Shown here: piece by piece, positions 1-43,740 of the stretch | How positions within the stretch are numbered: the stretch's first letter is position 1 | Layout of the letters: each line of letters starts with the position of its first letter | Assembly: GCA_027064125.1 (NCBI GenBank) | Contig: JAMOQF010000055.1 | Location: 1 to 56,535 of the forward strand | Length of the DNA: 56,535 bases | Reading direction: 5' to 3' | From: Acidobacteriota bacterium | Lineage (GTDB): Bacteria > Acidobacteriota > JAAYUB01 > JAMOQF01 | Notes under the pieces: generated by a model | Told to the model about the DNA's origin: nothing | Seen by the model: only the letters and a program-made list of their open reading frames with translations | Databases searched by the model: none | Made by a program: the position numbers and the translations under genes

Positions 1-93
1 AAAGATGCTTCTGATGTGAAACTACCCACTTTAAAGAAGATTTTAATAATATCATCTTCCAAAAAACCACTTATTGTTGAAGAGGTGGAGTAA
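1..93 (+). CDS. 3' end of an unidentified CDS cut by the window edge
   Basis: Frame 1 is open from position 1 (...KDASDVKLPTLKKILIISSSKKPLIVEEVE) and ends at TAA 91-93. No recognisable motif. Confidence 0.3.
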   Translation, partial: KDASDVKLPTLKKILIISSSKKPLIVEEVE

Positions 94-388
94 AGCAACT
101 TTTCCGATTTACGACCTGTGATTTTAGATTTTTAGAGAAAAAATATGTAAAATTAAAGGTGTCAGGCAAAAGTTTAAGAGAAATTTAAGGGGCTTTTAGG
201 GTTGGCATGCAAAAATGAACTCAAAACTGGCAGAATTAAAGTCCTCTGGCAAAATCAATGATTTAATGATTTAAGGAAAATTCCTTAGATTGAGTTTAAC
301 TTCTTAAATAACTTGAAAAAGGAAGTTAGATATTTAAAAAAAATCCGACGATATTTGTAGAAAGTAAAGGAGATATTAATGTGTCTGG
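94..388 (+). repeat. Intergenic mosaic repeat locus R1: one GGTGTCAGGCAA word plus one ~100-bp unit
   Basis: GGTGTCAGGCAA at 158-169 is followed by a unit with GGCA/TGGCA boxes. Positions 185-215 match 20606-20636 at 30 of 31 nt. Confidence 0.75.
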
Positions 389-2907: not shown

Positions 2908-5619
2908 CTATTGGGAAATTTCCATTAGAAGTATTTGCAAATCTAATAAATTTAATTTCCCATCTCCATTTATATCTCCCACATCTTTAAGATAGTTGTT
3001 TAAATATAGATTTTCCACCAGGAGATTTTTAAGGAGCAGGACATCCTCTATGTTTTTATTTCCATCTCCATTTAGATCTCCAGTAAAGTTTTCAAGGGAA
3101 CATGTTGGGGTTATTTCTTCAATGCTTATATCGTCTATGTACCATCCACTTCCGCCATTTGATTGATCTGAAGAAGCTCTGAACCTGATATATATTGTAT
3201 TTCCACTGAAAGAAGATAGATTTATAATACTTTCCTTTAATTGGGTGGAAAGTGATCCTCCACTAAAGGCCATTCTGCCTCCAATGGGAGAACCATATTT
3301 ATCAGAAATTTTCATATTGTATCCATTTTGAGTGAAGTAATTGCCCAGGTCCTGAAAGTTGTTTCCTCCATCTGTTGATATTTCCACAACTCCTCCATCG
3401 TATCCAATTTCAAAGGAATAGGTATGGAAAAAGTGAAGGTAATACAATTTTTCATTTGAGAGATCTATGGGGCCTAAGGTTAAATAACTATCCTGAATCT
3501 GAGGTGCATCTATTGTAAAATAACTGTGGTTTTGGGAGTGAGAGTAGGGGGTTTCCTTCAATTGCCATTCATAATTCGTTGTTCCAGCCCCTATTGATAT
3601 CTGCCAGAGAGAACTTCCACCAGATTCAAGATCATCTTCAAATATGTTATTGGAAGATATTTCTCCAATTTGTAGTTCTTCTTGAAAGTTAAATTCAAGT
3701 CCATCATTGTAAACTTTTATAAGGAATTTTGCCTTTTCTCCACACTGAAAATCACTACCTATTTTAAATATTATGGAATTTTCACAATGTATAATTGCCC
3801 CGGTGTGAGGTAAATTGTTAATTGAAAGGAGATTATTTAAAATTTTTATTGAAGGGTCTTCTGGAATAATTTTTATAAAGATTTTTCCAGTATCTACTGT
3901 TCCTGAGTTGTAGAAACTTAAATCCATTTTGTAAATTTCACCCGGATCTGCCTTTTCATCTCCATTGCCATCCAATTCCGAAAAGTCTACATTGTATAGG
4001 TTTACGAAGGGACCGTGGCTTCTACAATCTCCTTCTGAAAGTATGCCCCTGTTGTAGAAAATATTACATATTAATCCGGTATGATTTCCATTGTATAAAT
4101 TTTCATCTGCTTCAATTATTGAGAGGGCTCCATTTCTAAAATTTGTGGATGGAGGCATATGGTATTGTCCCTCAAGTACAATGGAATCCGTTATTTCCTT
4201 GCCCAGTTTCATAAATATTTCTCTAAGGCAGGATGACCATATCTCCCCATCGTCATGGATTTCACCATCCATGTCATCCGGGTACTTTTTATTTGAATCC
4301 ACCCTTCTCAGACATGGTGGAATTGAATTTGAATAGGAGGTGGAATCCCACTCTCCAATACAAAATGGATCAAAACCATTTGCAACACTTATGTTATAGG
4401 TGTTTGAGAAGGCCCAGTAATCACCGAAGCCTTCTCCTATGGCTCCCGATTCTCCTGTGGTGACAAACGCGTTTTTATTTTGAAAGTATTGAATTGAGTG
4501 CCCCATTTCATGAAGAATTATGTCTGCATCCTCTGCGTCGTCAACTCCGCCATCTCCATAAGCTATATAAGGGCTGCTTCCAGCAGAAAAATGGGATTGA
4601 TCCGCTCCATTTACTCCGTGGGGATCCACAGAAAGGGGATAGGGATATATGTCAAAACCTAAGGATTTTAAATATCTACATGCTTTATCAATCCAGTAAT
4701 ATACCATGACTGCTTCAAATCCATCATCTTCTCTGTAGTAGTTGAAGGAACCATCCTGTGATTTTGGTGGTGCAATATATGGATATTCAATGTCTTTAAC
4801 TTTTACATTTGGTCCATTTAAAATAAATAGGTCATTTTCATCCTTAGATATATCTTTTAGTAAAACTTCTTGATATGCTCTTTCTGAAATGGCGTTATTA
4901 CTATCTCCCATATCCCTCAAGTTTATATTTCTGAGTGAATTTACTGGATTTGGATTGAATATTCTTCCATTTCCATCGAAATAATAGATATTTGAGGTTT
5001 CAAAAAGTATTTTCCCATCAAGGAGGGAAATAATATATTTTACATCTAATGGAGAATTTTTCTTTTTTAATTCCACATAAGTTGAAGGTATTAAATTGTT
5101 ATCCTTTCCTATGTAAAAAACTTTATAGAGGTTTTTGAGGGAAAATTTTCTGCCATATTTTTTTTCAAAACTTTTTTCCGCTATTTCCAGGGAATCAGAT
5201 TCATTTAATTTTTGTGGATGGGAGATTTTGGTGTTGAATACCTTTTCGAAAATTGAGTAGAGTTCTTTTTTATCGTTAATGTGGAGATCTATATAAGAAT
5301 TAAAAACTTGAATTCCCTTAAAATTTGCCTTAAATCTCAAATGAATTCCACTTAAACTTGTCCATTCCTCTTCAAGGTTGAAGTTTTTGTAAATTTTTTC
5401 TATTTTCAATGGGTATTTTAAATTTTCAAGAATTAGTCCCGGATTTAAAAGTTCATTATTTTGCAGTTTGTAATCTTTCAATTTAAGGAAGCATGGAAAA
5501 TTTTTCTCATAAGAAATTTTAATTTCTTTTCCTTCAAAATTTATAAACTTATAGTTTGAAGAAAATAAAAAGGTAATTGAGAGTAAAGTAGTAAATAGGA
5601 AAAAGATTTTTTTGAACAT
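2908..5619 (-). CDS. Secreted zinc metalloprotease (thermolysin clan, M36/fungalysin-like) with a C-terminal MAM/lectin-like domain and a dockerin-type module
   Basis: Signal peptide MFKKIFFLFTTLLSITFLFSS. HEMGH plus the downstream GEGFGDYWA (gluzincin third ligand). The C-terminus is GDLNGDGNKNIEDVLLLKNLL...GDINGDGKLNLLDLQILL, a duplicated calcium-loop dockerin signature. Confidence 0.75.
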   Translation of the reverse strand: MFKKIFFLFTTLLSITFLFSSNYKFINFEGKEIKISYEKNFPCFLKLKDYKLQNNELLNPGLILENLKYPLKIEKIYKNFNLEEEWTSLSGIHLRFKANFKGIQVFNSYIDLHINDKKELYSIFEKVFNTKISHPQKLNESDSLEIAEKSFEKKYGRKFSLKNLYKVFYIGKDNNLIPSTYVELKKKNSPLDVKYIISLLDGKILFETSNIYYFDGNGRIFNPNPVNSLRNINLRDMGDSNNAISERAYQEVLLKDISKDENDLFILNGPNVKVKDIEYPYIAPPKSQDGSFNYYREDDGFEAVMVYYWIDKACRYLKSLGFDIYPYPLSVDPHGVNGADQSHFSAGSSPYIAYGDGGVDDAEDADIILHEMGHSIQYFQNKNAFVTTGESGAIGEGFGDYWAFSNTYNISVANGFDPFCIGEWDSTSYSNSIPPCLRRVDSNKKYPDDMDGEIHDDGEIWSSCLREIFMKLGKEITDSIVLEGQYHMPPSTNFRNGALSIIEADENLYNGNHTGLICNIFYNRGILSEGDCRSHGPFVNLYNVDFSELDGNGDEKADPGEIYKMDLSFYNSGTVDTGKIFIKIIPEDPSIKILNNLLSINNLPHTGAIIHCENSIIFKIGSDFQCGEKAKFLIKVYNDGLEFNFQEELQIGEISSNNIFEDDLESGGSSLWQISIGAGTTNYEWQLKETPYSHSQNHSYFTIDAPQIQDSYLTLGPIDLSNEKLYYLHFFHTYSFEIGYDGGVVEISTDGGNNFQDLGNYFTQNGYNMKISDKYGSPIGGRMAFSGGSLSTQLKESIINLSSFSGNTIYIRFRASSDQSNGGSGWYIDDISIEEITPTCSLENFTGDLNGDGNKNIEDVLLLKNLLVENLYLNNYLKDVGDINGDGKLNLLDLQILLMEISQ

Positions 5620-6899: not shown

Positions 6900-7835
6900 A
6901 GGGAAACACACCATAAACTTAGTGTTTGAGGGATTGTAGGAAAAGATATTTTCATTTATTAACTACATGATTAAATTTCAGGCAGTGTAAAATTAATTGT
7001 GTCAAAAAGGAGAAATCTCTTTTCGGGAAAAAGGGATTAAAATTAACCTTGATTGAAAATTCCCTAAAAGGACTATACCTATGAGTGACTTAATTTTTAC
7101 CTGGGTTTCAGAACTTTTCAAAAGGTATCAGGCAAGTAATAGGTAATACAGGTAAGTAAGTAAAAAAAGAAAGATGGAAGGGGACAGACCTAAATCTTGA
7201 AAATGTGTCAGGCAAAAATTTAGATGGCTTTTGAGGGGGAGGCAAATAAAAAAAGGATAAAATTCTGGCAAAAAGAAAATCCTTCTGGCAGAAATCAAAT
7301 GATTAAAATTTTTTTCTTTCTATAAGCCTTTAGGGGTATTTAGGGTGGGCAGATAGGAAGAAATTAAATTCTTGCAAAGATGAAATCCTTTGGCAAAAAA
7401 CAACAATTAAAGCAAATGCCCTTTTTCATCCTATAAACCTTTGGGGGTATTAGGGGTAGGCAAATAAGGAAAAAACTTAAAACTGGCAATACCTAAAAAT
7501 TTTCTGGCAAAAATTAACAATTAAAATAAAATCCCTTTTCTCTTCTATAAGCCTTTTATGGGCCTTATGGGCCTTTTGGATCGGGTAAGTAAGAGGAAAA
7601 ACTAAATTCTGGCAAAGATAAAATCTTTTAGCAAAAGTCAGCGATTAAATAAAATTCTTTTTTACCCTATAAATCTTTAAAGGATATGGAAAAAGGGACA
7701 GACCTGAATTTAAAATTGGACAAGTAAGAAAAAGGAATGAAGGGGAATTGTTCTCATACAAAATTGAAAGACTTCTTTTCTTTTATTTTAACAAATCTTA
7801 TTTACTAAATAGAAAATTTCTTTAATCTTTACTTA
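6900..7835 (+). repeat. Intergenic mosaic repeat locus R2: left boundary module, word motifs, four tandem units, right boundary module
   Basis: The left module 6903-7123 is homologous to 39507-39590 and, inverted, to 33640-33800. GGTATCAGGCAA is at 7124, GGGGACAGACCTAAA at 7180 and GTGTCAGGCAA at 7205. Units span 7216-7668. GGGACAGACCTGAA is at 7695. The right module ~7775-7835 is homologous to ~40220-40262. Confidence 0.85.
7216..7668 (+). repeat. Tandem array of four degenerate ~104-122 bp units
   Basis: Unit heads CTATAA(G/A)CC lie at 7320, 7431, 7545 and 7667 (periods 111, 114, 122). Each unit carries G-rich TTTAGGGG..TAGGG..GGCA followed by two (T)CTGGCA boxes, spaced about 25 and 20 bp, and ends in CCCTTTT. 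Confidence 0.85.
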
Positions 7836-8072
7836 AAAATACCTTTATCCAAAAGTCAATCCCGTATTTTAGATGGTTTTTATATGAGATATTGTATAAG
7901 ATATTGCTGACTGAAAATTACAAAATATATAAAATTTTTATTTATTTTTGTTGAAATTTTCAGTAAAATATTATCAAGTGGTTAATTTATTCGGAGGTTT
8001 GGAGTTACGAAAAGAGTATCCTTTCTTTTCATCCTGTTTTTAATTCTATTTATTTTTTCTGCCTGGAATAAG

Positions 8073-17138: not shown

Positions 17139-18064
17139 AGAATAAAAAGTTGATTAAAACTCCCATAGAAAGAGTTGATTTTCCAGAGTTTCTGAAGTAT
17201 AAAGAGGGAAAGGTAAGACAAATTGTAGACCTTGATGACAAATTACTCATTGTGACCACTGACAGAATCTCTGCCTTTGACTATATTTTGAAATCTCTCA
17301 TACCTTTTAAGGGGATTGTATTGAGCATGTTGAGTCTCTTCTGGTTTGACTACTTTGAAGATGAAGTAAAAAATCACATTATTAGTGGTGATATAAAGGA
17401 TTTTCCAGAAGTGTTTAGGGATTATGAACCATATCTTCTCGGTAGAAGTGTACTTGTCAAAAAGGCAAAGCCACTTCCCGTTGAGTGCATAGTAAGGGGA
17501 TATCTCTCTGGATCTGGTTGGAAGGAGTATTTGAAAAGTGGTGAGGTATGTGGTATTTCCTTACCTGAAGGACTTGAGGAGTCTGAAAAGTTGTCGGAGC
17601 CAATTTTTACACCTTCCACAAAGGCTGAAGAGGGACATGATGAGAATATAACTTTTGAAAAAATGTGTGATATCGTTGGTAGGGAACTTGGGGAAAAAAT
17701 AAGGGAAATTTCAATATCCCTATACCTTAAAGCACATGAATTTGCATATCAAAAGGGTATAATCGTTGCAGATACCAAAATGGAATTTGGCATTTATAAT
17801 GGAGAATTGATTCTCATAGATGAAATTTTTACCCCTGATTGTTCTCGTTTCTGGCCGCTTTCTGGATATGAGGTTGGAAAGAGTCAGGTATCTTATGATA
17901 AACAGTTTGTAAGAGATTTCCTCCTGAAAAGCAATTGGGATAGAAAAAGTGTTCCTCCACCTCTTCCAGATGAAATAGTTTCAAAAACATCTAAAAAGTA
18001 CCTTGAAATATATAAAATTTTAACTGGAGAAGATATTTTAACGAAGTTTGAGGTTTTAAAATGA
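17135..18064 (+). CDS. purC: Phosphoribosylaminoimidazole-succinocarboxamide (SAICAR) synthase
   Basis: GKVRQIVDLDDKLLIVTTDRISAFD and ADTKMEFG motifs. ATGA overlap with the dus stop. Confidence 0.95.
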   Translation: MKNKKLIKTPIERVDFPEFLKYKEGKVRQIVDLDDKLLIVTTDRISAFDYILKSLIPFKGIVLSMLSLFWFDYFEDEVKNHIISGDIKDFPEVFRDYEPYLLGRSVLVKKAKPLPVECIVRGYLSGSGWKEYLKSGEVCGISLPEGLEESEKLSEPIFTPSTKAEEGHDENITFEKMCDIVGRELGEKIREISISLYLKAHEFAYQKGIIVADTKMEFGIYNGELILIDEIFTPDCSRFWPLSGYEVGKSQVSYDKQFVRDFLLKSNWDRKSVPPPLPDEIVSKTSKKYLEIYKILTGEDILTKFEVLK

Positions 18065-18585
18065 ATATTTTAGATCTGTTTATTGTAATAGTTTTTTCAG
18101 TTTCCATTTTTTTTAGTTTTATAAAAGGTTTTATAAGGGAGTTTTTTTCAATTTTATCGGTTATTTTTGGGATCTATCTTGGTAGTTTTTACTACGAGAG
18201 TGTGGGGAATTTTTATAGGGGTATTATTGATAGTAAGGTTCTCAGAGATGTGGCTGGTTTTTTGAGTATATTCTTTGGGATTTTACTGCTTTCTTCCCTT
18301 TTAATATTTTTGTTCAATAAACTTATAAAGGCTGCAAATTTAAAGTGGCTTGACAGAGGGATAGGAGTTTTATTTGGATTTGTAAGGGGTTGGTTAATTA
18401 TAGCTGGAGTTCTTATAGTTATGGTTTCATTTCATTTTAAAGAAAACATGGTGGAAAAATCTAAACTTGCTCCCTACATTTTGACAACTTCAAGAATGAT
18501 GGTTTATATGACCCCTACAAAGGTTAAAAAGATGTTTGAAAGTGAATACGATAAGATATATAAAAAGTGGATTGAAGAGAAATGA
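18061..18585 (+). CDS. cvpA: CvpA-family membrane protein
   Basis: MNILDLFIVIVFSVSIFFSFIKGFIREFFS is the typical CvpA N-terminus, with four TM segments. ATGA overlap with purC. Confidence 0.8.
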   Translation: MNILDLFIVIVFSVSIFFSFIKGFIREFFSILSVIFGIYLGSFYYESVGNFYRGIIDSKVLRDVAGFLSIFFGILLLSSLLIFLFNKLIKAANLKWLDRGIGVLFGFVRGWLIIAGVLIVMVSFHFKENMVEKSKLAPYILTTSRMMVYMTPTKVKKMFESEYDKIYKKWIEEK

Positions 18586-18659
18586 TGTTGTTTTTATTTG
18601 ATCACATTTTTTGTCATTTTAAAGAATTTTAAATTGTGGATTTGAAAGTAGAAAAATAT

Positions 18660-20975
18660 TGGGGGGCTAAAAGGTGTCAGGCAAGATCTGGATAAAAATG
18701 ATAAAAAGAAAAGGTGTTAAGCTAAGATAATCGAATTCCTCCCATAATCCCCACCAATTGATTTGTAGGAAAGAAAGAAAAAGATTGAAAGTTCAGGAAA
18801 TTCAGGAAAATTCAAGATTTAGGGAAAGAAAAAATGGTGTCAGGCAAGTAGTAAAAAAAGAAGGTGGGTAGGGACAGACCTGAACTTGGGAAAAAATTTT
18901 AAAAAGTATCAGGCAGAAATACCCCCCACAATCCCTACCGTGGGTTTATAGAGAGGAAAGAGAAAGGTTTTTTCTTTTTTGTATGGCACTATTTGTTTTC
19001 AGAAATTTTTAGAAGCTTTTGAGGGAGGTAAATGAGAAAACAGATTAAATATTGGCAGAGTTAATAATTTTTTGGCAAAAGCAATGATTAAAGTAAGTCC
19101 CTTTTTCATCCTATAAACCCTTAAGGGGGTGTTAGGGGTAGGCAAATTAAAAATAAATTAAAGAAATGGATGGGGACAGACCTGAATTTGAGGAATTTGA
19201 GAAATGAATTTAAGAATTAGAATTAAAGGTGTCAGGCAAAATTTTAGATAAAAAGTGTCAGTCAGAAATTTAAATGGCATTTAGGGTAGGCAAACATAGG
19301 AAAAACTCAAAACCGGCAGTCACTTAAAATTTTCTGGCAGAAATCAAGCAATTAAGGCAAACCATTTTTTTCTTTCTATAAGCCTTTAGGGGGCATTTAG
19401 GGTGGGTAAGTAAAAAAAAGAAAATGGAAGAGGGGACAGACCTAAAAATGAGAAATGTCATGTAAAATTAAAAGGTGTCAGGCTAATAGGTAATAGGTAG
19501 AAAGTTTAAAATCTTCTGGCAGAGACTGACAATTAAGATTAACCCTTTTTATCCTATAAACCTTCAGGAGGTATTCAGGAGATGGCAAATAGGATAACAA
19601 ATTAAAATCTTAGAAAGATAAAGTCTTCTGGCAAAGATCAAACAACTAAGCAAAATCTCTTATCCTCCTATCAGCCTTTAGTGGGCATTTGTGGTGGTAA
19701 ACAAAAGAAAAACTTAAAACTGGCGATGACTCTAAATTTTTTAGTAAAAGTCAAGGATTTAAAAAATCCTTTTTTCCTTCTACAAACTTTTAGGAGGACT
19801 TTAAGAATGGAAGAGCGGAAGAGGAAACAGACCTGAGTTTAAGAATAAATTTAAAAAAAATATCAGGCAAATAAGTAGGACAAGTAAGACAGGTAAGTAA
19901 GTAAAAAAAAGAGAAGATGGGTAAAGGTGGGTAGGGACAGACCTGAAGACCTGAAGATAAGATTAAAAAAGGTGTCAGGCAAAGTTTGGAAAATTTGGAA
20001 TTTGGGAAATGGTGTCAGGCTAAAAGGCTGAAAAGCGTCTGACCCCCTCACAATCCCCACCATGGGTTTATAGAAAAGACAAGAAGAATTAAAGATTTAG
20101 AATTTTGTTCCAGTCAAAAAATCTAAGAATTTAAAAAGAATTTAAGTGGACTTTAAGGAAGACAAATAAAAAAAATCAAATTTTGGCAAAAAGAAATTTC
20201 TTTAGCAAAAGGCAACAATTAAGTTCATCCCTTTACTTTCCTATAAACCTTCAGGGGGCTTTCAAAGTGGACAAGCAAAAAGCAAATTAAATTCAGCTAA
20301 ATAAAATTTTTTAGCAGAAATAAAATGATTAAAATTTTTTGAAAAAACCAGGTGATTAAAGAATAATTCTTTTTGTCTTCTATAAATTTTTTTGGATAGG
20401 CTAAAAAGGTGTCAGGCAAATAAGTGAAAAATAAGTAAATAAATAAGGAAATAAGTAAGGTAAGTAAGTAAAGAGAAAGTGTCAGGCAAAAAATTTAGGC
20501 GGCATTTGGAGAGGCAAGAAAAAATACCTAAAACTGGCAATAACTTAAAATCTTCTGGCAGAAATCAAACAATTAAAGTAAAACCATTTTCTTCTCTATC
20601 AGCCTTTAAGGGGCTTTTGGGGTTGGCATGCAAAAAATAAACTAAAAACTGGCAATAACTTAAAATCTTCTGGCAGGGACAAACAATTAAAGAAAAATCC
20701 CTTTTCTTCTCTACAAACCTTCAGGGGGTATTTAGGGGAGGCAAGTAGGAAAAGAAATTGAATTCTGACAGGAGTGATAAAGTCTTCTGGCAAAAGTCAG
20801 GCAACGAGGAAAGCGCAGAAAAGTTTTTGTATCTCTTTTTAAAAGACAAAAATTTAAAGGCTTTCCTCAATGAGTTTAAGATTTTCTTCTTCTACCCTGA
20901 AAGGAGATGTTTCAAGAGCCTTACACAATTAAGTTGACATTATCAAACCTTGCACAATTAACTTTACATTACCCT
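18660..20975 (+). repeat. Intergenic mosaic repeat locus R3: the largest array, ~2.3 kb and gene-free
   Basis: At least 11 GTGTCAGGC(A/T) words (18673, 18836, 18906, 19238, 19255, 19474, 19860, 19971, 20011, 20408, 20480). Five GGGACAGACCTGA words (18871, 19172, 19432, 19823, 19934). About 12 full or truncated units, with heads at 19111, 19376, 19554, 19668, 19780, 20241, 20380, 20596 and 20711. Inverted unit heads at 18739, 18922 and 20043. Confidence 0.85.
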
Positions 20976-21093
20976 TTTTTCCTTTATTGGAATATTTTGT
21001 CAATTATATGAAAAGTATGAAAATATACATTTAGGTTAAAAATGGTTGTGTATATAGAATCTCAAAAAGTTTTTAATGGGAATTTAAGGAGTA

Positions 21094-21567
21094 TTATTTA
21101 AACAATTTTTCAACAGATAGAACTTTATAATATTTTACACTTTTTGGTAATTTAACTTCAGCAGTTCTACCAACTTTTGTGTTTAGAAGTCCTTTGGCAA
21201 GGGGTGCATTTATAGATATGACTTCTATCCCTTCCCATTCATCAAATTCTCCAAGAATGGCAAATTCCATCTCTTCCCCTGTATCTTTATCCAGTACCCT
21301 TACTTTTTTACCTATTGTTACGATATTATCAGGTAGATCCATTTCCTCAATCAATGCCACATTTGCAAGTCTCTCTCTAATTTTTAACTCTTCAATTGCG
21401 AGCATTTCCTTTCTCTCTTTTGCTGCGTCATATTCAGCATTTTCTGATAAATCTCCATAAGATGCTGCAATTTGAAGGTCTTTTGCCACACTATATTTTT
21501 CCTTTTGTATATCTTGAAGTCTTTTTTGAAATTTTTCATATGTTTTTTTTGTCATATATATGGGCAT
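21094..21567 (-). CDS. greA: Transcription elongation factor GreA
   Basis: N-terminal coiled coil plus DLSENAEYDAAKE and a C-terminal FKBP-like domain. Start placed at ATG 21565-21567 (MPIYMTKK), with GGGAG 6 nt upstream. Confidence 0.9.
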   Translation of the reverse strand: MPIYMTKKTYEKFQKRLQDIQKEKYSVAKDLQIAASYGDLSENAEYDAAKERKEMLAIEELKIRERLANVALIEEMDLPDNIVTIGKKVRVLDKDTGEEMEFAILGEFDEWEGIEVISINAPLAKGLLNTKVGRTAEVKLPKSVKYYKVLSVEKLFK

Positions 21568-22079: not shown

Positions 22080-22355
22080 TTAATTATTTACAATCTCCTT
22101 TAGTTCTTTACCGGGTTTAAATTTAACAACCTTTTTTGCAGGGACGTGTACTTTTTCCCCTGTTTTGGGATTTCTTGCAATTTTTTCCTTCTTCTCTTTT
22201 ACATTAAAAACTCCAAATCCTCTAATTTTAATGCTTTCTCCCTTTGAAAGGGAATTTGTAATGGCATCCAAAATGAGATTAACCGCTTCGGTACTTTCTT
22301 TATAGGTTATGTTCATTTTTTCAGCGATAATTTTAATAAGTTCCAATTTTGTCAT
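22080..22355 (-). CDS. HU/IHF-family DNA-binding protein
   Basis: MTKLELIKIIAEK...RGFGVFNVKEKKEKIARNPKTGEKVHVPAKKVVKFKPGKELK is the canonical HU fold sequence. Confidence 0.95.
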   Translation of the reverse strand: MTKLELIKIIAEKMNITYKESTEAVNLILDAITNSLSKGESIKIRGFGVFNVKEKKEKIARNPKTGEKVHVPAKKVVKFKPGKELKEIVNN

Positions 22356-23980
22356 TAATTTTCCTCCTTACTCATACTTGAAATTTGTTTTTTAATCCTT
22401 TCACTGAGCGGTATATTTAATTCCTTTGTAGTTACAGCGATCTTTCTTTCTGCAAGATTCATATTTTTTATTTTTACTTTTATATTATCTCCCACTTTAT
22501 ATTCTTCCAGGGCCTTCTCAAGTTCTGAATTGTGACAAAGGGCTTCAATGCCATCATCTAACTTGATAAAAAGTCCGAAATTAGTTATATTTGTAATTTT
22601 CCCTTCTAATATATCTCCTTCAGTATAATTTGCAAAAAAGTTTTCCCACTTTTTTGATTCATGTTTTTTTAAACCAAGTGTTAATTTGTGTTTGTATGGG
22701 TTTATGTGAATTATTGAAACTTCTATCTTTTCTCCTATGTTTAAATTTTTTAATTCCTCTTCTGGGATGGAAGATACTTTTAAAGTCCCCAATATTTTAG
22801 GTTCAAGTTCCACTATTATTTCTGAGGAATTTATTTCTCTCAAAGTTCCTTCTAAGGTGGAAAATTTCTTATGCCTTTTTGCAAAATCAAACCAGGGGTC
22901 CCTTTTGGCTCTTTTTATGCTCAGTGAAATTTTTCTGTGATTTTTATCAATTCCCATTATTTTTACATTCACTTTATCGCCAATTTTAAATATTTCTGAT
23001 GGGATTTCCACCTTTTCCCATGAAATTTCGCTCTTATGAACGAGTCCTTCAATTCCTTCTTCAAGTTCCACAAAGATTCCATAATCTTCAAAGGATTTAA
23101 TTTTACCTTCTACAATTGTTCCCTGAGGATATTTTACATCTGCATTTTGCCATGGATCAGGGGTTAGTTGCTTGTATCCGAGACTCACTTTTCCTTCAAC
23201 CTCATCGTAGTGAAGGACCATTACATTGATTGTTTCTCCTATTTTAAAAAAATCTGCTGGATGTTTGACCCTTCCCCAAGAAATATCTGTTTTGTGTAGC
23301 AATCCGTCCACTCCACCTAAATCTAAGAAAACACCATATTCAGTTATATTTTTAATGTATCCCTTTACTATATTTCCGGGATAGAGATCTTCCTTAGAAG
23401 TTAGATTGATGTGATTATTTTCAATGAATTCCTTTTGAGATACAACAATATTTTTCTTTTCTTCATTAATATTTAGGATTTTAAGTTTTATTTCTCTTCC
23501 TATTGCACTTTTAGGATTTTTTATGAATAGGGGATCTGCCAAAGAACCGGGGAGAAATGATGGGATTCCTATGTCTACTATAAATCCCCCTTTTATCATT
23601 CTTACTATTTTTCCAGAAATAGGCCTTTCATCCATCATGTTCTTGATCAATTTTTTGATTAATTCTTTTTCTAAAATTTCTCTTCTTGAGAGAATGACAT
23701 GTTGCTCATCCGATGGAATTGCTTCAATTTTTACTTCAATTTCATTTCCAATTTTCCTTTCTTCTTGAGCAACTTGTTCAATTGGAAGTTTGCCTTCTGT
23801 CTTATATCCCAGATCTATCAGGCAATGGTCTTCCAATATTTCCACAATGGTTCCCTTTACAATATCTCCCTTTTTGAAATACATGGAACCGGGTGAAAAC
23901 ATTTCAAGTAGTTTACTAAATTCCTCACTACCATTTTCTTCATTTTTGAAGAAGGGAGAACCTAAAAATCTTTTTTCCAT
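22355..23980 (-). CDS. rpsA: 30S ribosomal protein S1 (six S1 domains)
   Basis: Repeated G.(I/V)V.G.V..I...G.F(V/I).L..G(I/V).GL.H.S(E/D)IS S1-domain pattern over 541 aa. Confidence 0.9.
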   Translation of the reverse strand: MEKRFLGSPFFKNEENGSEEFSKLLEMFSPGSMYFKKGDIVKGTIVEILEDHCLIDLGYKTEGKLPIEQVAQEERKIGNEIEVKIEAIPSDEQHVILSRREILEKELIKKLIKNMMDERPISGKIVRMIKGGFIVDIGIPSFLPGSLADPLFIKNPKSAIGREIKLKILNINEEKKNIVVSQKEFIENNHINLTSKEDLYPGNIVKGYIKNITEYGVFLDLGGVDGLLHKTDISWGRVKHPADFFKIGETINVMVLHYDEVEGKVSLGYKQLTPDPWQNADVKYPQGTIVEGKIKSFEDYGIFVELEEGIEGLVHKSEISWEKVEIPSEIFKIGDKVNVKIMGIDKNHRKISLSIKRAKRDPWFDFAKRHKKFSTLEGTLREINSSEIIVELEPKILGTLKVSSIPEEELKNLNIGEKIEVSIIHINPYKHKLTLGLKKHESKKWENFFANYTEGDILEGKITNITNFGLFIKLDDGIEALCHNSELEKALEEYKVGDNIKVKIKNMNLAERKIAVTTKELNIPLSERIKKQISSMSKEEN

Positions 23981-26316: not shown

Positions 26317-27393
26317 GTGATAAGTTTAATTGAAAAGGTAGTTATAGAAAAGGATTCTCTGGAAAGTTCTGTGGGGAGAAATTTAATCTCTTTTTTCCCA
26401 CGGGAAAAAATATTGATTGTTAATGACTTTGAAGATTTTGAATTTAATAAAACCCACTGGCATATTATTTGTAGACGGGGGAAGGGAAATTTTTTAAAGG
26501 ATTGTCCCTGCACACCAAATTATAGGGGTTGTAATTATAAAGTTTTAAATTTAATTTACAATTGCTATCTCTCCTGCACCTATTGTATTTTGCAGAGTTA
26601 CCTGGGAGGAAAAATCATTACTATTTTTTCAAATTATGAAGATGTTTTTAAAGAAATTGAATTTTATCTTGAAAATAGAAAGGGATCCCTTATAAGGTTT
26701 GGTACAGGTGAACTCTCTGACAGTCTTTTTTTAGACAATATTACTGGAATTTCTAAGAACCTCATGGAGTTTTTTTCCACAAAGAAAAATGGTGTAATTG
26801 AGTTAAAGACAAAGACTGTGAAAATAGATCATCTACTGGGTGTTAAACACAACGGAAGAACCGTTTTTGCCTGGTCTTTAAATCCTGTGGAGATAGCATT
26901 GAGTGAGGAAAAATTATCTCCCCATCCATATCTTAGGATTGAAGCTGCTAAAAGGGCTCAGGAAAGTGGGTTTTTTGTGGCATTTCATTTTGATCCAATA
27001 ATCTATTATGATGGTTGGCTTGAAGGATACTCAAGTATTATTTCTAAACTTGGGAGGGAATTGGATCCCGAAAAGGTTGTCTGGATAAGTATGGGATCTC
27101 TCCGATTTATGCCTTCACTACTTGAGTTTGTGGAAAGGGAGTATCCAGATTCTAAAATTTTCTATAATGAATTTATAATAGGACTTGATGGTAAAAGAAG
27201 GTATTTTCTTCCACTGAGAAAAAAAATGTATAAAGTGATTTTTTCAAAGTTGAAAGATGTTTTCCCCGATGTTCCCATATATTTTTGTATGGAAAGTGAT
27301 GATTTATGGGAAGAGATAATAGGTTTTAGACCTAAAAGTGATGAAGAAGTTGGTGAGTATGTTGTGGGAAAAATTAAGAGGATTCTCTTTTAG
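26317..27393 (+). CDS. Spore-photoproduct-lyase-family radical SAM protein
   Basis: CPCTPNYRGCNYKVLNLIYNCYLSCTYCILQSYL contains the CxxxCxxC cluster in the context typical of SplB-like enzymes (...C..SC.YCILQ.Y). GTG start. Confidence 0.8.
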   Translation: MISLIEKVVIEKDSLESSVGRNLISFFPREKILIVNDFEDFEFNKTHWHIICRRGKGNFLKDCPCTPNYRGCNYKVLNLIYNCYLSCTYCILQSYLGGKIITIFSNYEDVFKEIEFYLENRKGSLIRFGTGELSDSLFLDNITGISKNLMEFFSTKKNGVIELKTKTVKIDHLLGVKHNGRTVFAWSLNPVEIALSEEKLSPHPYLRIEAAKRAQESGFFVAFHFDPIIYYDGWLEGYSSIISKLGRELDPEKVVWISMGSLRFMPSLLEFVEREYPDSKIFYNEFIIGLDGKRRYFLPLRKKMYKVIFSKLKDVFPDVPIYFCMESDDLWEEIIGFRPKSDEEVGEYVVGKIKRILF

Positions 27394-27396
27394 TTT

Positions 27397-28230
27397 TTAT
27401 AGTGCTTTTATTTTTTCCACTACTTCTTTTATGAGATAATCTGGTGTTGATGCTCCTGCTGAAATTCCCACGGTTTTACAGTTTTTAAACCATTCTTCCT
27501 TTATGTTTTTGGCAGATTCAACTTGATATGTATTTGGGTTTAACCCCCTGGAAATTTCAGTTAACCTCCTGGTATTTGCACTTGTAAATGATCCCACAAT
27601 TATCATCACATCATTTTCAAGGGGCATTTTTCTAATTTCATCCTGATGATCCTGGGTGGGTTTGCAGATTGTATTTATAAACCTCAATTCTTTTGTTATT
27701 GTTACAAGCTTTGAAAGTATCCCTTTAACTTTTTCAATATTTTGTGTTGATTGGACCACTACACCAATTTTTTTGAATTTTTTTCCTATTTTTTTAACTT
27801 CATGGGGATTTTCAATAACTATTGGGTTTTTCGATTGTGCTGCTATTGCCTTTACTTCATCGTGGTTGTGGTCACCTATTACAACAATTTGATAATTTTC
27901 AGATTCAAGTTTTTTTACTATTTTATGAATTTCAAGCACCATGGGACATGTTGCATCTACTATTTTTAACCCCTTTTCCTTTGCTCTTTCATATATTTCA
28001 GGTACTGTGCCATGTGCCCTCAATAGGAGAACGCCACTATTTATTTTTTCTATTGAATCCACAACCTTTATGCCTGCTTTTTTAATTTGTTCCACCACAA
28101 ATTCATTGTGAACTATATCTCCCAACATGTATACATCGTTTTTTTCTTCTCTTGCCGTTTTTAAAGCAATCTCAATGGCTCTTTTAACACCAAAACAAAA
28201 TCCTGCACTTTTTGCAACTTTAATTTTCAT
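27397..28230 (-). CDS. ispH: 4-hydroxy-3-methylbut-2-enyl diphosphate reductase
   Basis: MKIKVAKSAGFCFGVKRAIEIA, ATCPMV and the conserved third Cys region, typical of IspH/LytB. Confidence 0.95.
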   Translation of the reverse strand: MKIKVAKSAGFCFGVKRAIEIALKTAREEKNDVYMLGDIVHNEFVVEQIKKAGIKVVDSIEKINSGVLLLRAHGTVPEIYERAKEKGLKIVDATCPMVLEIHKIVKKLESENYQIVVIGDHNHDEVKAIAAQSKNPIVIENPHEVKKIGKKFKKIGVVVQSTQNIEKVKGILSKLVTITKELRFINTICKPTQDHQDEIRKMPLENDVMIIVGSFTSANTRRLTEISRGLNPNTYQVESAKNIKEEWFKNCKTVGISAGASTPDYLIKEVVEKIKAL

Positions 28231-32942: not shown

Positions 32943-33039
32943 CTTTTACCCTCCCTTTAAAAATATGTTTAAATAAATATGATAGTATTTTTTTAAAAAA
33001 TTACGAAAAAAATGTGAAATTTTTTGGGGAATGTAAAGT

Positions 33040-33800
33040 TATAGGAACAAAAACTTCTTAAGCATTTTCTTCGTTTGGGAAAAACCTCCATTTGTATGTA
33101 ATCTTTTGATTCCTTAAAACACCTTTTTCCACCCTAAACCTCATTCACTAATCCCATCCAGACTGTTTTTAGAAAGGGAAAAGTTTTACTTTAACTCTTC
33201 GTTTTTTAATTTTTCTTTTTTGCTTAGTACTAAATTTTTAGTTTTTCTCATTCTTTCCTATAAACCCATAGTGGGGATTGTGGGGAAGTGTTTTTAGTCT
33301 GACACCTTTTATTTTTATCCAGATCTTGCCTGACACTAATTTTAATCAAATTCAGGTCTGGCCCCACTTCTTTTTTTCTTACCTGCCCAACACAACATAT
33401 TTGCCTGACACCTTTTGACCTAACATAACATTTTTAGCCTGGCACCTTTCGGCACCTTTCTTAGTATCATTTTCAAGTCTTTTTCAGGTCTTCAGGTTTT
33501 TCCCAATTCCCCCACCAATTTTTCCATCTTTTGTGCTGGGATTCTTAACTCAATTTCTCTAAATGTGGTTCTGTAAGTTCTTTTGTAATAACCCTTTATT
33601 CCAGTTTAATATCTCATAAGGTATTTTTCCTTTTTTTCTAATAAAATTTTTTCAATCAAATCCTTGAAAAGTTTCAAAATACCACGTAAAAATTAAACAT
33701 GCTCATTGTGTTTCACACCGTTTTGGGAAGTTAATTTTAGCCTCCTTCTTTATGATGTAAAAATTTCTTCCTCCTGACACAATTAGTCGTTAAATTATTT
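33040..33800 (-). repeat. Intergenic mosaic repeat locus R4: the same family in inverted orientation
   Basis: The reverse complement carries TTGCCTGACAC (33326, 33401), TTCAGGTCTGGCCCC (33351) and CCTATAAACCCATAGTGGGGATTGTGGGG (33257-33285). Positions 33311-33336 are the exact reverse complement of 18674-18699. Positions 33640-33800 are the inverted counterpart of the R2 left boundary module. Confidence 0.85.
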
Positions 33801-33882: not shown

Positions 33883-36747
33883 ATGCGTTTAAAAACCGTT
33901 ATCTTTTTAGTTTTGTTATTGTTTTTTCCCCTTCTTACTTTAAATAAGGTTATGGGTAGAAATTTGGAAAATTTAGATGATAAAAAAAAAGAGTTGATGA
34001 AGGTAGTTGATGTAACTAAATATTATAAAAACTTTAATTGTATTTCGAAAGAAACTTTTCCTTTTAACCCTTCAACTTGGATAAAAAGATATGGAGGGGA
34101 TTTTGCTGATGAAGCTTATTCTGTTGCTTCTACCACAGATGGAGGATACATTCTTGCTGGGTACACCAATTCATTTGGATTACTTTTTGAGGATGTTCTT
34201 GTTGTAAAAATTACTTCTTCTGGAAAGGTTTTGTGGGCCAAAATGTATGGTGGCAATCTCGTTGACAAGGCAATTTCAATAATTAGAACTTCTAATGATG
34301 AGTTTTTAATTGTTGGATTTACAAGTTCTTTTGGAAATATAAATGGTGATGGCCTTGTGTTTAAAATAAATTCAAATGGAGATGTAATCTGGTCGAGAGT
34401 ATATGGGGGAAATCACATGGATGTCTTTTATTCTGCAGTGGAAAGTAAAGATGGTTATGAAATATTGGGCTATACATATTCCTTTGGTAATGGAAAAGAA
34501 GATATGTGGTTGGTTAAACTAAGTTTTAGTGGATCTCTTTTATGGTCAAAGATATATGGTGGTGTTAAGAGTGATTTGGGCTTAGGTTTGAAAAAGGATT
34601 TTGATGGAGGTCTTTTATTAACTGGTAGAACTGACTCATATGGAAATGATGGAGATATAATTTTGATTAAAGTGGATCAGAAAGGGAGTGTTAAATGGGA
34701 TAAAGTATATAGAGGAGAATGTTTTAATATCATTTATTCTATAGAAAAGACTTCGGATGGTGGATATGTATTAGGGGGAAGTTCAAAGTCTTCCGGTGAT
34801 AATGGATGGGATTTTTTAGTTGTAAAACTTGATTCCAAAGGGTGTGTAGAATGGTCTAAAACTTTTGGGAGCTATAATGATGAAGTTTCTTTTTCTCTTG
34901 TAAGGACAGTGTCTGGATTTTTTTTGGTTGGATATGAATTGGATTCTAATTTTGATTTTTATAGAGGATTATTGTTACGGATTGATAAAAATGGGGATTT
35001 GAATTGGTCTAAAATTTTTGATCAGGGAAGTAGTTATATACCTTATTTTGTAACTAATTCCTCTGAAGGAGGATTTTTAATTGCTGGTGGTTTGGAATCA
35101 GATTATTATGGTAAATATGATTTTTCTCTGTTAAAACTTGGTTCAAATCTTGACATAGAAGGATGTTCTTTTTTTAAAGATTATCATATTTTAGAAAATA
35201 ATATTAATTTAACAGTAACTTCTCCTGATATTATTGAGTATTCACCTTCTACTTCTTCAAGTGAGGTCTTGCTCAATTCCTTAGTGGCTCCAATTAAGGT
35301 TTATAACGTGTGTCCCATTATTCCGTGGGCAAAAATTTATTCTAATGTAAGTAGTAATATTTGCACAAGTATTGTTAAAAGTTCTGATAATAATTATGTA
35401 ATTTTAGGAAATACAAGTTCTCTTGGCAATAGTGATAATGATATTTTAATTTTCAAACTTGATTCATATGGAAATATTATTTGGGCAAAAAATTATGATG
35501 GTGGTGGAGATGATTTTGGAAGTGAAATAGTGGAATCTTGTTATGGTTGTTATATCATTGTTGGAAAGACAAATTCCTTTGGTTCTGGAAATTATGATGT
35601 ACTTGTTATGAAGATTGACGAACTTGGTTCTATTGTTTGGTGTGATGTATTGGGGGCATATTATAATGATTACGGGGGTTCGTTAATTCAAATATCATGT
35701 GATGAACTGGATATAATTGGGTATACCAATTCTTATGGAATTGGTTCATATGATACTTTTGTTGCTAAACTTGATTATAATGGTAATGTAATTTGGTCTA
35801 AGGCTTATGGGAAGAGTAATAAAGATGATAAAGGTCATTTTATATTGAAAACATCAGATGGTGATTTTTTAATAGGTGGAGTTACTGTCTCCACTGGAGA
35901 TTCAAATGGCATAGATTCATTTCTTGTGAAACTTGATGCAAACGGAAATCTTTTATGGTCCAAGACCTATGGAGATGATAGGGATTTGGTTTTTAAATCT
36001 GCGGTAGAAACGGAAGATGGAGGATTTTTAATATTTGGTGAGAGCGTACTTCATGGAATATGGAGAGATTTACTTGTGGTTAGACTCAATTCAACTGGAG
36101 AATTAAAATGGGCAGAGACATTTGAGTGTAAAGGTACTATCCATTTAAATTCGGTTGTTAAAACCTATGATGGGAAATATATGCTTGTTGGAAAATCAAA
36201 TATTTTAAACAATGAGGATGTTTTTGTTATGGAACTTGATTGTGATGGTAATATAATTTTTTCAAAAATCTTTGGTTCGGATGGAAACGAGGAGGCTTTT
36301 TCTGTTGAGGAAATTTGTAAAGATTGGTCTTTTATAATTGGGAAAGCAGATTCTTTTGGAAATGGAAGAAGTGATATATTGCTCTTAAAATTACCTTATT
36401 TGGGAGATTTTAACTATTGCCCCTATTTAAGAGATTTTTATCCTTCCCCAGTTAAAATGGATTTGGTTGAAAAATCTGAAGATATTACAGTAACTCCCTT
36501 TATGTTTCATGAGGATGAGAATTGTTATTTTATGGATAGAAATGTTTCCTTAGAACAAACTAAAATATGTCCTCTTTTAGGAGATCTGGATGGGAATGGG
36601 ATTGTAAATATAAATGATGTTTTATTACTTAAAGAATATCTTGTGGGGAATTTTCTGGATATAGAAAGGGGCATGGCTGATATGGATGAAAGTGGAAGGA
36701 TAGATAATGTTGATTTGATGTTGCTTTTATTTAAGTTAAGCAGATAG
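33883..36747 (+). CDS. Secreted tandem-repeat protein (about 14 beta-propeller-type blades in two blocks) with a C-terminal dockerin-type module
   Basis: Signal peptide. Fourteen ~50-60 aa repeats of the form W.K.YGG...D.A.S...T.DGGY.L.G.T.SFG.G..D.L..KL...G.... The C-terminus is CPLLGDLDGNGIVNINDVLLLKEYL...DMDESGRIDNVDLMLLL. Confidence 0.7.
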   Translation: MRLKTVIFLVLLLFFPLLTLNKVMGRNLENLDDKKKELMKVVDVTKYYKNFNCISKETFPFNPSTWIKRYGGDFADEAYSVASTTDGGYILAGYTNSFGLLFEDVLVVKITSSGKVLWAKMYGGNLVDKAISIIRTSNDEFLIVGFTSSFGNINGDGLVFKINSNGDVIWSRVYGGNHMDVFYSAVESKDGYEILGYTYSFGNGKEDMWLVKLSFSGSLLWSKIYGGVKSDLGLGLKKDFDGGLLLTGRTDSYGNDGDIILIKVDQKGSVKWDKVYRGECFNIIYSIEKTSDGGYVLGGSSKSSGDNGWDFLVVKLDSKGCVEWSKTFGSYNDEVSFSLVRTVSGFFLVGYELDSNFDFYRGLLLRIDKNGDLNWSKIFDQGSSYIPYFVTNSSEGGFLIAGGLESDYYGKYDFSLLKLGSNLDIEGCSFFKDYHILENNINLTVTSPDIIEYSPSTSSSEVLLNSLVAPIKVYNVCPIIPWAKIYSNVSSNICTSIVKSSDNNYVILGNTSSLGNSDNDILIFKLDSYGNIIWAKNYDGGGDDFGSEIVESCYGCYIIVGKTNSFGSGNYDVLVMKIDELGSIVWCDVLGAYYNDYGGSLIQISCDELDIIGYTNSYGIGSYDTFVAKLDYNGNVIWSKAYGKSNKDDKGHFILKTSDGDFLIGGVTVSTGDSNGIDSFLVKLDANGNLLWSKTYGDDRDLVFKSAVETEDGGFLIFGESVLHGIWRDLLVVRLNSTGELKWAETFECKGTIHLNSVVKTYDGKYMLVGKSNILNNEDVFVMELDCDGNIIFSKIFGSDGNEEAFSVEEICKDWSFIIGKADSFGNGRSDILLLKLPYLGDFNYCPYLRDFYPSPVKMDLVEKSEDITVTPFMFHEDENCYFMDRNVSLEQTKICPLLGDLDGNGIVNINDVLLLKEYLVGNFLDIERGMADMDESGRIDNVDLMLLLFKLSR

Positions 36748-39509: not shown

Positions 39510-40262
39510 TACATACCATAAATTTTCTGTCTTGGGGATTATAAGAGAAGAAATTTTCATTTATCAACTCCATAATCAAATTTTATAGCAAATATCTGGT
39601 TTAATTCATATCTTTTATTTTAGATTTAATTAAAGGATTAATTCCCTATGTTTTATGTATTATGTAGTTTAAAGAATGCTACTTGAAAAGGCAGATTAAA
39701 TATAGACAAATAAAAAATAAATTAAATTTAGGCAAAAATAAAAAAGCTTTTTACAAAAGGCATTGAATTTAAGTATTCCCCCTTTCCCTTTTATAAACTT
39801 TAAGGGAGAATTTAGGGATGAGAATAAATTTTAAAAAAGTGTCAGGCAAGAAATTTAAGGGGCATTTATGGGGGGCAAGGAAAAGAAAAACTTAAAACTG
39901 GCAAGACCTAAAATTTTTTTGGCGAAAATTAATGAATAAAAGAAAATCTCTTTTTCCTTCTATAAACATTCTGGATGGCATCTGGGTAGCAGGTAAGAGA
40001 AGAATTTAGTATTAGGCGAGAAATCTGGTGCATGAAATTAGAATTGGTGTCAGGCAAGAATTGGATAAAAAGAAAAGTGTCAGGCAGAAAATTTAAGAAA
40101 ATTTAATAATGAAAATTTAAAAAGGCAAATAAGAAAAGAAGCAAAAAAGAGTGGTGAAAATTTAATTCTTTAAGTCGGGACCAGTGATTAAGTAAACTTT
40201 TCTCATATAAGCATATTTTTTCAAATTATCTTAATAAATCTTATTTACCAAACGAAAAGTTT
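39507..40262 (+). repeat. Intergenic mosaic repeat locus R6, lying between the two kinase-paralogue remnants
   Basis: The left module 39507-39590 is ~75% identical by eye to 6903-6985. GTGTCAGGCAA(G) words lie at 39840, 40046 and 40077. A unit spans 39851-39960. The right module ~40220-40262 is homologous to ~7790-7835. Confidence 0.8.
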
Positions 40263-43500: not shown

Positions 43501-43740
43501 GGAAATTTCAAAAAGAGTGGGGAATTAATGGAAATTTCAAAGAGAATGGTTTCAAAATATGGTGAAAATCTTTTGGAGGAGAAGTTTTTTAAATCGTTTG
43601 TTAATTTATATTTTGGTGACCGAAATTCCTTTAAGTTTATTGAAAAATTAATTAATTCAAGGAAATACTATAGGGCAAATTTTTTAAATTTGTTTAATAT
43701 GTTTAAAAATTATAAACTTTCTTTATTTCCAGCAAGGTAA
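40549..43740 (+). CDS. Hanks-type Ser/Thr protein kinase with one TM segment and a ~730-aa TPR-like helical-repeat domain
   Basis: GKGGTAEVY, VAIK, HRDIKPSNILV, DFGIA and SPEQ. TM segment FYLLLSLLIISILSALFIYFY. The C-terminal part is helical-repeat rich. Confidence 0.9.
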   Translation: MRTFIQELEKSGQYKILKLIGKGGTAEVYLAEDRILNRKVAIKFILSFDEESKEQFLKEARIQAQIEHDNICKIFEVGEVLEIPYIVMEYIDGKPLDYFSNKISLEKKVSLILKVCDVLIEAHRNGVIHRDIKPSNILVEEKESGELKPYLMDFGIARKQNAPGKTTTGTVVGSPNYMSPEQAMGKVHELDRRSDIYSLGATFYHLICGKTPFDAQSIITAIYCAINKEPTSPRKISPAIPKDIEAIVLKCLEKNPDRRYQSARELADDLKRFLNGEPVLAQNPTFAYRFYKRVRKNKKFYLLLSLLIISILSALFIYFYNRILQEKRARLILEFDRKANEIENLLEIAYLLPPHSIAKRKNEVLKKIKALEEKIMELNEKEKAIGFFAMGKAYFYLGEYNKSLRYLNRAWKNFKTGYVAHFIALVNSSIYLEKYQDYSLLSDKKEREAKLKEINLKYRDPALKFFKLSDIDWPEGASFKKGIFCLLEKKYNEAILNFEKVIRENPAYYRALVLEGECYLNLYVNSKGEKKDYYFKRAIESIKRAILIGRSDPSLYVKLARYYEKKMITLIYNSNRDLMPIFKKIESNLKIAIKIDNRNKRAYEEMTSAYWRISEYLAFKGDKGARRVVEKGLKITEYAAKLFPNSFDIFSSRISFYILTINYFRPEKKKMEKLIDEAIDFLKKSEKLFPSTKSILYKKGELYSAIGYYKFDNGSNPEIFLKESIKVYTEIIDNFKEDIEIAIFNRAVDEYYFAKSYYHFDGKDPCEYLKKSIRDYKKVLEMDPGDYLTMINLSELYYFRFSFNLLNGSNLKRDLKRIEYYYNCARKINENYRFTYLLKLEFLIAKMEYLNLMGSFNKRKVDETINFLEFIKNKFSIDEATYFSYLSLIYRANLNPDLNFIKSYEKNLLIPYLKRDERDIYLNMDGFFTPYFIFLGKSDFSNYSIVTKMLDVFKRVKKFEGEKYTSDRELLKILLFCSAYYLKNGNFKKSGELMEISKRMVSKYGENLLEEKFFKSFVNLYFGDRNSFKFIEKLINSRKYYRANFLNLFNMFKNYKLSLFPAR

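Follow-up and report, generated by a model that had tools for sequence, protein, structure and literature searches.

Several kinds of repeated DNA are known from the intergenic regions of bacteria. Autonomous insertion sequences (IS) of the IS256 family encode a DDE transposase of about 370-400 amino acids between terminal inverted repeats of about 26 bp, and they generate target-site duplications of 8-9 bp. MITEs (miniature inverted-repeat transposable elements) measure about 50-1000 bp and occur in high copy number in intergenic DNA. In the bacterial interspersed mosaic elements (BIMEs) of enterobacteria and the BOX elements of pneumococci, which are likewise intergenic, short module types follow one another in regular order and the number of modules varies from locus to locus; the units of BIMEs and of repetitive extragenic palindromes (REP) are palindromes of 20-40 nt that alternate in orientation and are linked to REP-associated tyrosine transposases (RAYTs). 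The subject of the present analysis is the 2.5-kb, gene-free gap between the convergent genes cvpA and greA (positions 18586-21093) on contig JAMOQF010000055.1 of an Acidobacteriota bacterium, a stretch of 56,535 nt that is called the window hereafter. We assign a probability of about 0.68 to the reading that this spacer derives from an IS256-family (ISCni1-like) element, as a single decayed, non-autonomous derivative or a few of them fused, in which the transposase gene has mostly been replaced by a modular minisatellite, and we consider it just as probable that the spacer is selfish, decaying DNA without a role for cvpA or greA.

Among documented designs, the nearest by analogy is BrickBuilt, a minisatellite-containing MITE of Porphyromonas gingivalis made up of a leader, 23-nt tandem repeats, a tail and IS5-type ends, with no transposase remnant (Klein et al. 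2015, PMC4596501). Both families are non-coding, strictly intergenic and multi-copy and run from a leader through direct repeats to a tail; both have inverted-repeat ends that match a resident IS family and a limited host range; and in both, copies often comprise the leader only or the tail only, and target-site duplications are seen in only some copies (PMC4596501). There is no sequence homology between the two, and the likeness is an analogy of design. The present family differs in its units of about 114 nt with about 61% pairwise identity, its IS256-type ends, the 5' and 3' pieces of a transposase gene, the internal copies of the left inverted repeat and the inverted head. If the reading given above is right, the family would be a second, independent bacterial transposon derivative with an internal minisatellite, after BrickBuilt, and one in which the transposase remnants are still attached, so that the derivative can be traced directly to its parent.

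The other known systems resemble the locus in single traits. With IS256-family elements of the ISCni1 type, the array of the spacer (R3) shares the right inverted repeat and the last codons, its sister arrays R2 and R4 in the window have pieces of the left end, and 8-bp duplications are found in contig L116 and in Thermotomaculum hydrothermale; R3, however, retains only about 45 terminal codons, has no left end and a doubled right end, and does not encode the transposase of an autonomous IS. Copy number and intergenic position are those of a MITE; the sibling elements measure 0.7-1.2 kb and R3 2.3 kb. As in BIMEs and BOX elements, the arrays are ordered mosaics of several modules whose number varies between loci, but unlike REP and BIME units the units here are about 114 nt long, direct and without a hairpin, in clusters bounded by IS256 ends. 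No recurrent protein gene was found adjoining the arrays (no search for a RAYT in the rest of the genome was made). A leader-like head followed by polar direct repeats in non-coding DNA recalls clustered regularly interspaced short palindromic repeats (CRISPR). A CRISPR array was nevertheless rejected, since unique spacers are lacking and the 114-nt period is a single diverged repeat throughout; the window has no cas genes.

The repeat unit, U, is described by a profile built with iterated nhmmer searches. It has a 96-nt core and a period of 112-117 nt, its consensus reads ...CTGGCAA..CTTAAAATCTTCTGGCAGAAATCAAACAATTAAAG....CCCTTTTC.TTCTATAAACCTTTAGGGGGCATTTAGGG..GGCAAATAA...., and the window carries 21 matches to it in five intergenic regions (R1 to R5). 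All modules of an array lie on a single strand and in a fixed order, namely a short word S (GGTGTCAGGC), an optional head H, a run of units, a module M (GGGACAGACCTGA), another S 15-50 nt later, another run of units and finally a tail X. The head is about 135 nt long (CCCCCACAATCCCCACCATGGGTTTATAG...TTGTCTGGCACTATTTGTTTTCAGAAATTTTTAGAGGCTTTTGAGGGAGGCAAATAA), and its first part scores as an inverted partial unit with nhmmer; the tail, of about 145 nt, stands at the 3' end of the array and ends in ...CCTTGCACAATTAAGTTGACATTACC. A specific degenerate pattern of the unit has five matches in the window and none in 100 shuffles of the window. In the Joint Genome Institute (JGI) metagenome collection it is found in 21 more contigs, all from one sample (Ga0256842), which overlap neither one another nor the window and have only the repeats in common with it. 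Since the window is itself also present as a contig in that collection, these 21 contigs are probably other parts of the same genome. The window and the metagenome contigs combined contain 124 unit matches in 230 kb, in intergenic DNA, and the arrays show no consistent orientation relative to neighbouring genes.

The first-pass annotation of the window had described the spacer as devoid of a credible open reading frame (ORF) and built of repeats, and both statements are borne out. The longest ORF has 66 amino acids, and 91.5% of the spacer has copies outside it (blastn searches of the remaining window and of 22 related contigs, E<1e-3), its only unique parts being 18586-18670, 18823-18840 and 20985-21093. 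The compound arrangement reported there, which consists of S, the head and the first unit, does recur: it is present three times in the window, at about 18906-19143, at about 20011-20275 and, inverted, at 33130-33345, and at least eight further copies are found in related contigs. It had also been proposed that the units are cut at the same point and that their junctions mark hot spots of recombination or insertion. This could not be upheld, as the units beside M reach profile position 93-96 of 96 and are followed by a normal linker of 20-35 nt and then by M, and the succession U-M-S is the regular module order of the whole family, not a set of breakpoints. Two aspects had been missed: the right end of the spacer is the end of an insertion sequence, and sister species lack the entire block. 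Three assemblies made independently for the same species (L001, L002 and L003) carry the spacer with at least 99.8% identity, and it is therefore not a misassembly.

The tail provides the link to the IS256 family. In the spacer, positions 20803-20942 match positions 1222-1378 of contig L129 with 81% identity over 158 nt (blastn, E 8.5e-40) and also match the transposase of T. hydrothermale (tblastn), and the right inverted repeat at 20918-20944 was detected by the inverted-repeat scan with 2 mismatches in 27 positions. Translation of the tail together with its upstream DNA in contigs L110 and L104 gives the C-terminal third of a transposase of the Mutator/IS256 type (match to positions 268-373 of the 379-position Pfam profile Transposase_mut, E 7e-7, 28.8 bits with a cut-off of 21). 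Contig L129 (Ga0256842_1049794), from the same metagenome, carries at 130-1384 a near-complete IS256-family element of 1255 nt, frameshifted into ORFs of 81 and 304 amino acids; it is the closest of the IS copies and the prime parent candidate for the repeat carriers. The whole IS is legible in its homologue in T. hydrothermale AP017470 (L125:9128-10384, 1257 nt), with the inverted repeats GGCAGTGTAACATTAATTGTGTCAGG / GGTAATGTCAAGTTAATTGTGTCAGGC and the 8-bp duplication AAATTTAA, and intact relatives are labelled IS256 family / ISCni1 in their source records. No intact transposase gene is present in the window or in the 21 array-bearing contigs, where the centre of the gene is replaced by repeats, and no transposase or recombinase, Transposase_mut included, was detected among the ORFs of the window. 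The ends and flanking remnants are 80-88% identical to L129; thus, as is typical of a MITE, there is no transposase and the ends of the parent IS occur in the same gene pool. The same relationship is visible inside the arrays: the S word and the inner part of the IS inverted repeat have the 9-mer GTGTCAGGC in common, and long-form S words such as TGTCATGTAAAATTAAAGGTGTCAGGC agree with the left IS inverted repeat in 20 of 27 positions, and therefore the arrays contain internal copies of the left IS end.

The IS ends enclose the repeats. In L103, L113 and L116, left and right inverted repeats detected by the scan enclose every S, M, H and U module; in L104 the right repeat was found by the scan and a degenerate left repeat by eye, and in R4, which has both IS parts, the degenerate ends were identified by eye. 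In the arrays with one end (R2, R3, L106, L108, L109, L110, L111, L117 and L118) the modules are always on its inner side, R2 having kept the left end and R3, L106, L108 and L110 the right end. The family has a fixed polarity: the left IS end or S words come first, H and the unit runs split by M-S joints follow, and the transposase gene's 3' end and then the right inverted repeat close the element. The composite in L116, 1178 nt long, is flanked by a perfect 8-bp target-site duplication (GAAAAAAT).

The distribution of the family is narrow. In the relatives L120 and L122, which have about 74% nucleotide identity and the same gene order, the distance between cvpA and greA is only 12 and 5 nt, and neither units nor IS remnants are present in the 20 kb of these sequences; therefore the array is a lineage-specific insertion. 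The repeat family was not found in viral contigs, plasmids or phage collections, and a degenerate pattern of about 33 bits gave 92 matches against genome contigs, all of them single chance matches in unrelated taxa. Internally deleted IS copies in other organisms (L127 and L128) contain no units.

Based on these comparisons, the following course of events is proposed. An ancestral IS copy would have gained a repeat block inside its transposase gene, and the resulting composites would then have reached dozens of positions between genes. They would either have been transposed in trans by means of the IS ends, or have arisen where resident IS copies underwent gene conversion through the end sequences in common. 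The copies would now be decaying, and the one in the spacer would have no cis function for cvpA or greA. In that case a long gene-free spacer in a compact genome is explained without a new RNA gene, and about 7% of the window would be the debris of one IS-derived repeat family.

A number of observations weigh against this derivation from an IS256-family element. On the one hand, they concern the carriers. About half of the arrays (for example R5, L099 and L102) have no IS remnant, R3 has no recognisable left inverted repeat and exceeds its siblings in length, and the 21 contigs are no more than probable parts of the genome of the window. The target-site duplication is kept in only one of the four composites with both ends, being absent from L103, L104 and L113, and the duplication in L116 would also survive if an ordinary IS insertion had been converted later. 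The junctions between IS and array vary, the left part ending at IS positions 176-493 and the right part starting at IS positions 974-1347; because they differ between copies, the proposed derivation needs later erosion or several independent events. On the other hand, they concern the unit itself. Derivation of the unit from the IS was tried and rejected, as a search of both IS copies with the nhmmer unit profile gave nothing better than E about 0.8; likewise, local alignments gave motifs resembling the IS inverted repeat in the unit no better than those in shuffles. Adjacent units are 62.5% identical, compared with 61% between arrays, and the nearest relative of 83 of the 87 units sits in another array, values on which local tandem amplification with homogenisation was rejected. 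Neither are the arrays collinear copies of a multi-unit master, given that a close pair of units does not predict close neighbours downstream. Conservation along the unit is uneven, with a standard deviation of 0.168 between columns (0.046 expected under neutral decay), 23 of 117 columns conserved at 90% or more and 11 of 117 at 50% or less, and the best-kept motifs (CTGGCA, which occurs twice, ATTA, CTATAAACC and GGGGGC) are rich in G+C in an A+T-rich genome (32% G+C). An old burst followed by decay fits these patterns only partly; the uneven columns, the unhomogenised units and the non-collinear arrays hint at constraint or at copying at the level of the unit. Units that are not homogenised and yet conserve their motifs are a small puzzle concerning the origin and persistence of tandem repeats in bacteria.

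Some of these observations would also suit intergenic repeats with an origin of their own, comparable to BIMEs, BOX elements or minisatellites, into which an IS256-family element inserts preferentially, the IS ends being later visitors. The arrays that have no IS remnant, the differing junctions and the dissimilarity between unit and IS all favour such an origin, and some insertion sequences do target repeated extragenic sequences, such as IS1397 and ISKpn1 in BIMEs. However, an IS that lands in an array would leave array DNA on both of its outer sides, whereas here the modules are always inside the IS ends; the S word within the arrays is a copy of the IS inverted repeat; and L104, L110 and L126 have a common junction between unit and transposase at residue 253, which points to a composite that was copied whole. 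We regard this origin as unlikely, and give much the same low weight to the idea that the unit is under selection of its own, either as a domesticated array for protein binding or small RNAs or as a self-copying element that adds head-to-tail within IS256-derived carriers, although, if true, it would explain the conserved G+C-rich motifs, the unlikeness of neighbouring units and the non-collinear arrays. A slightly lower probability still is given to functional units kept by selection, as protein-binding sites or as small RNAs processed from the IS-derived promoter side, with the IS as their origin only. The position-specific conservation, the persistence of G+C motifs in a genome of such low G+C content, the unhomogenised neighbours, the almost invariant cores of M and S and the location of all modules on one strand, which is purine-rich like coding strands, speak in favour of a function. 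Yet the arrays are absent from sister species, in which cvpA and greA abut, their copy number and position are unrelated to the orientation of neighbouring genes, and strains tolerate the loss of 1.5 units; neither a conserved structure nor an Rfam family emerged, sites resembling sigma-70 promoters or intrinsic terminators are not enriched over shuffles, and the conservation of motifs could equally reflect the needs of copying. On inspection by eye the TGGCA motifs were also dismissed as sigma-54 sites, since neither their spacing nor the -12 element fits.

The first-pass annotation had also suggested that the compound module is a structured RNA or cruciform-forming DNA held together by a long-range stem, and this we consider very improbable, more so than the alternatives above. 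The complement between head and unit on which the suggestion was based, GGGTTTATAG / CTATAAACC(C), does exist, and RNAalifold recovers the GGGTTTATAG / CTATAAACC stem with its G/C-rich extension from ten modules of head plus first unit. In these copies 89.4% of the stem cells are paired, and L116 shows a single true compensatory change (columns 31/316). However, shuffled partners already pair in 87.6% of the cells (29 of 500 shuffles reach the observed value), double changes occur at 4 pairs where 2.0 are expected (46 of 500 shuffles reach this number), the covariation term is +0.08 kcal/mol, and uncompensated stem changes are present in L112, L113 and L115. The complementarity of head and unit follows automatically from the fact that one unit-like copy is inverted. 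Folding lends no thermodynamic support, the z-scores being -1.25 and -0.11 for two copies of the compound module and -1.07 to +1.97 for single units on both strands; RNAalifold leaves the 87 full-length units as an open chain on both strands, and Rfam gave no match at gathering thresholds or at E<=1. A role as structured RNA or cruciform is thus already weakly refuted.

Whatever their origin, the arrays are changing at present. The length of the array, whose heterogeneity had been put forward as a point to check, does differ between strains: L001 has 29 nt more, the M module after 19414 being exactly duplicated in tandem, and L003 has 178 nt more (about 1.5 units) after 20328. As the additional 178 nt are flanked by a 12-nt direct repeat (TTAAAATTTTTT), the unit at 20329-20391 of the window is a deletion chimera. 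In the more distant strain L004 the spacer is 0.74% different, compared with 1.08% for the mostly coding DNA upstream. Only internal indels are seen between strains, and the current dynamics is recombinational, repeat-mediated duplication and deletion being the only change visible today. Short-read contigs of the same species often end in or near arrays (L004, L005, L006 and many of L099-L119), and the contigs that end after cvpA do so at 537 nt (L004), 364 nt (L006) and 97 nt (L005). The arrays break short-read assemblies of metagenome-assembled genomes (MAGs) of this lineage, which matters for binning and for estimates of genome completeness.

The spacer itself can be read module by module. 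It is flanked by cvpA on the left (18061-18585, plus strand, 174 amino acids; identified from its translation and from Pfam Colicin_V on the identical product in MAG contigs) and by greA on the right (21094-21567, minus strand, 157 amino acids from ATG; Pfam GreA_GreB_N and GreA_GreB). A unique left flank (18586-18670) has no match to the repeat family, and a local alignment of the left edge of the spacer to the left IS end, made in search of a left inverted repeat, was no better than shuffles. All modules that follow are on the plus strand. The leading block (18671-18921) contains S at 18673 and 18836, a degenerate head start at 18738-18756, M at 18871-18883 and the S variant GTATCAGGC at 18906. 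The first copy of the head (CCCCCCACAATCCCTACCGTGGGTTTATAG ... GAGGGAGGTAAATGAG) occupies 18922-19040, and its first ~90 nt score as an inverted unit: nhmmer matches 18925-19013 on the minus strand at profile positions 17-96, and the copy was aligned with ten other heads. The first direct unit after it (19046-19137) precedes M at 19173 and S at 19228, and the next unit (19307-19402) precedes M at 19433 and S at 19474. A run of three units at 19502-19803 (19502-19579, 19603-19694 and 19714-19803) is followed by M-like modules at 19824 and 19934 and by S at 19971 and 20011.

The second copy of the head (20044-20175), recognised from a minus-strand nhmmer match at 20049-20090 and from the head alignment, is a divergent interior variant. 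It leads into the segment 20178-20391, with a unit at 20178-20263 and then the chimeric unit at 20329-20391, and into the segment 20408-20804, with S at 20408 and 20478, units at 20528-20622 and 20642-20737 and a last unit at 20759-20804 that is cut at profile position 45. The tail X (20803-20944) is the right end of the IS256-family element and comprises the last ~45 transposase codons and the right inverted repeat already mentioned. A second, tandem right inverted repeat lies at 20947-20973 (5 mismatches in 27 positions in the scan; also seen in an alignment), and a unique right flank (20985-21093) extends to the stop codon of greA.

The sister arrays of the window show other combinations of the same parts. 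R2 (6981-7840, plus strand) starts with the left inverted repeat at 6981-7007, followed by the 5' untranslated region of the IS and the first 14 transposase codons up to 7121 (blastn to L129 positions 130-270, 81.6%); beyond 7121 it continues with S, M, S, four units at 7261-7684 and M at 7695, and no right inverted repeat was found in it. R4 (33010-33800, minus strand) consists of a left IS part, M-like and S modules, a head, a partial unit, a right IS part and a degenerate right end, with IS positions 206-415 of L129 at 33732-33523 and 1169-1249 at 33126-33047 (blastn). R5 (39548-40090, plus strand) has units at 39723-39817 and 39892-39986 and S words and no recognisable IS end, and the fragment R1 (141-285, plus strand) has a long-form S similar to the left inverted repeat (141-167) and part of a unit (221-285). 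Over the whole window (1-56535) the GC skew tracks the coding strand, being positive for genes on the plus strand and negative for those on the minus strand; the repeat arrays, with +0.31 to +0.37 over 18-20 kb, are skewed like a sense strand, which matches their co-orientation with the transposase gene.

Several observations were made beside arrays in other contigs. In L126 (GCA_054051215.1, same species), inverted S-like words (GCCTGGCACCA and GCCTGACACC) are clustered at 100-300, upstream of the array, and alternate with a 12-nt tandem repeat (CCAACTACAACTA), a module type that was not seen in the window. Immediately beyond the right end of the composite in L103 there is a G-rich stretch that resembles a palindrome (GGGGAGGGGGGAGGGGGGACCCTCCCC; 60-160, minus strand). 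In L115 (913-1921) an array with a head directly precedes five clustered tRNA genes (1474-1921), on their upstream side, a tRNA-like sequence (GCGGGAATAACTCAGTGGTAGAG...) starts about 75 nt past the right end of the IS in L129, and a gene for transfer-messenger RNA (tmRNA) was detected at L111:11099-11450 (Rfam RF00023, 200.6 bits); the window contains no tRNA or tmRNA genes. The spacer between the lytB-like and SPL-like genes presents the reverse of the cvpA-greA case, as it is long in the relatives (about 440 nt; L120:3572-4008 and L122:4083-4529) and only 3 nt in the window (27393-27397); in L120 and L122 this spacer contains no units.

The remaining observations concern the host. The best matches of its ribosomal protein S1 (22355-23980) are one lineage with 92% identity, two relatives with 67-68% and otherwise only sequences with 36-41% (with Desulfobacterota-like names), and therefore the organism belongs to a sparsely sampled deep lineage. 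Its IS remnant is nevertheless 69% identical to one in the acidobacterium T. hydrothermale, which suggests horizontal spread of the IS. Finally, dockerin type I domains are found at the C-terminus of three proteins (2908-5619, 33883-36747 and 43710-44315), one of which also has an M36-like metallopeptidase domain; such surface or secretion machinery is unusual for an uncharacterised lineage of low G+C content.

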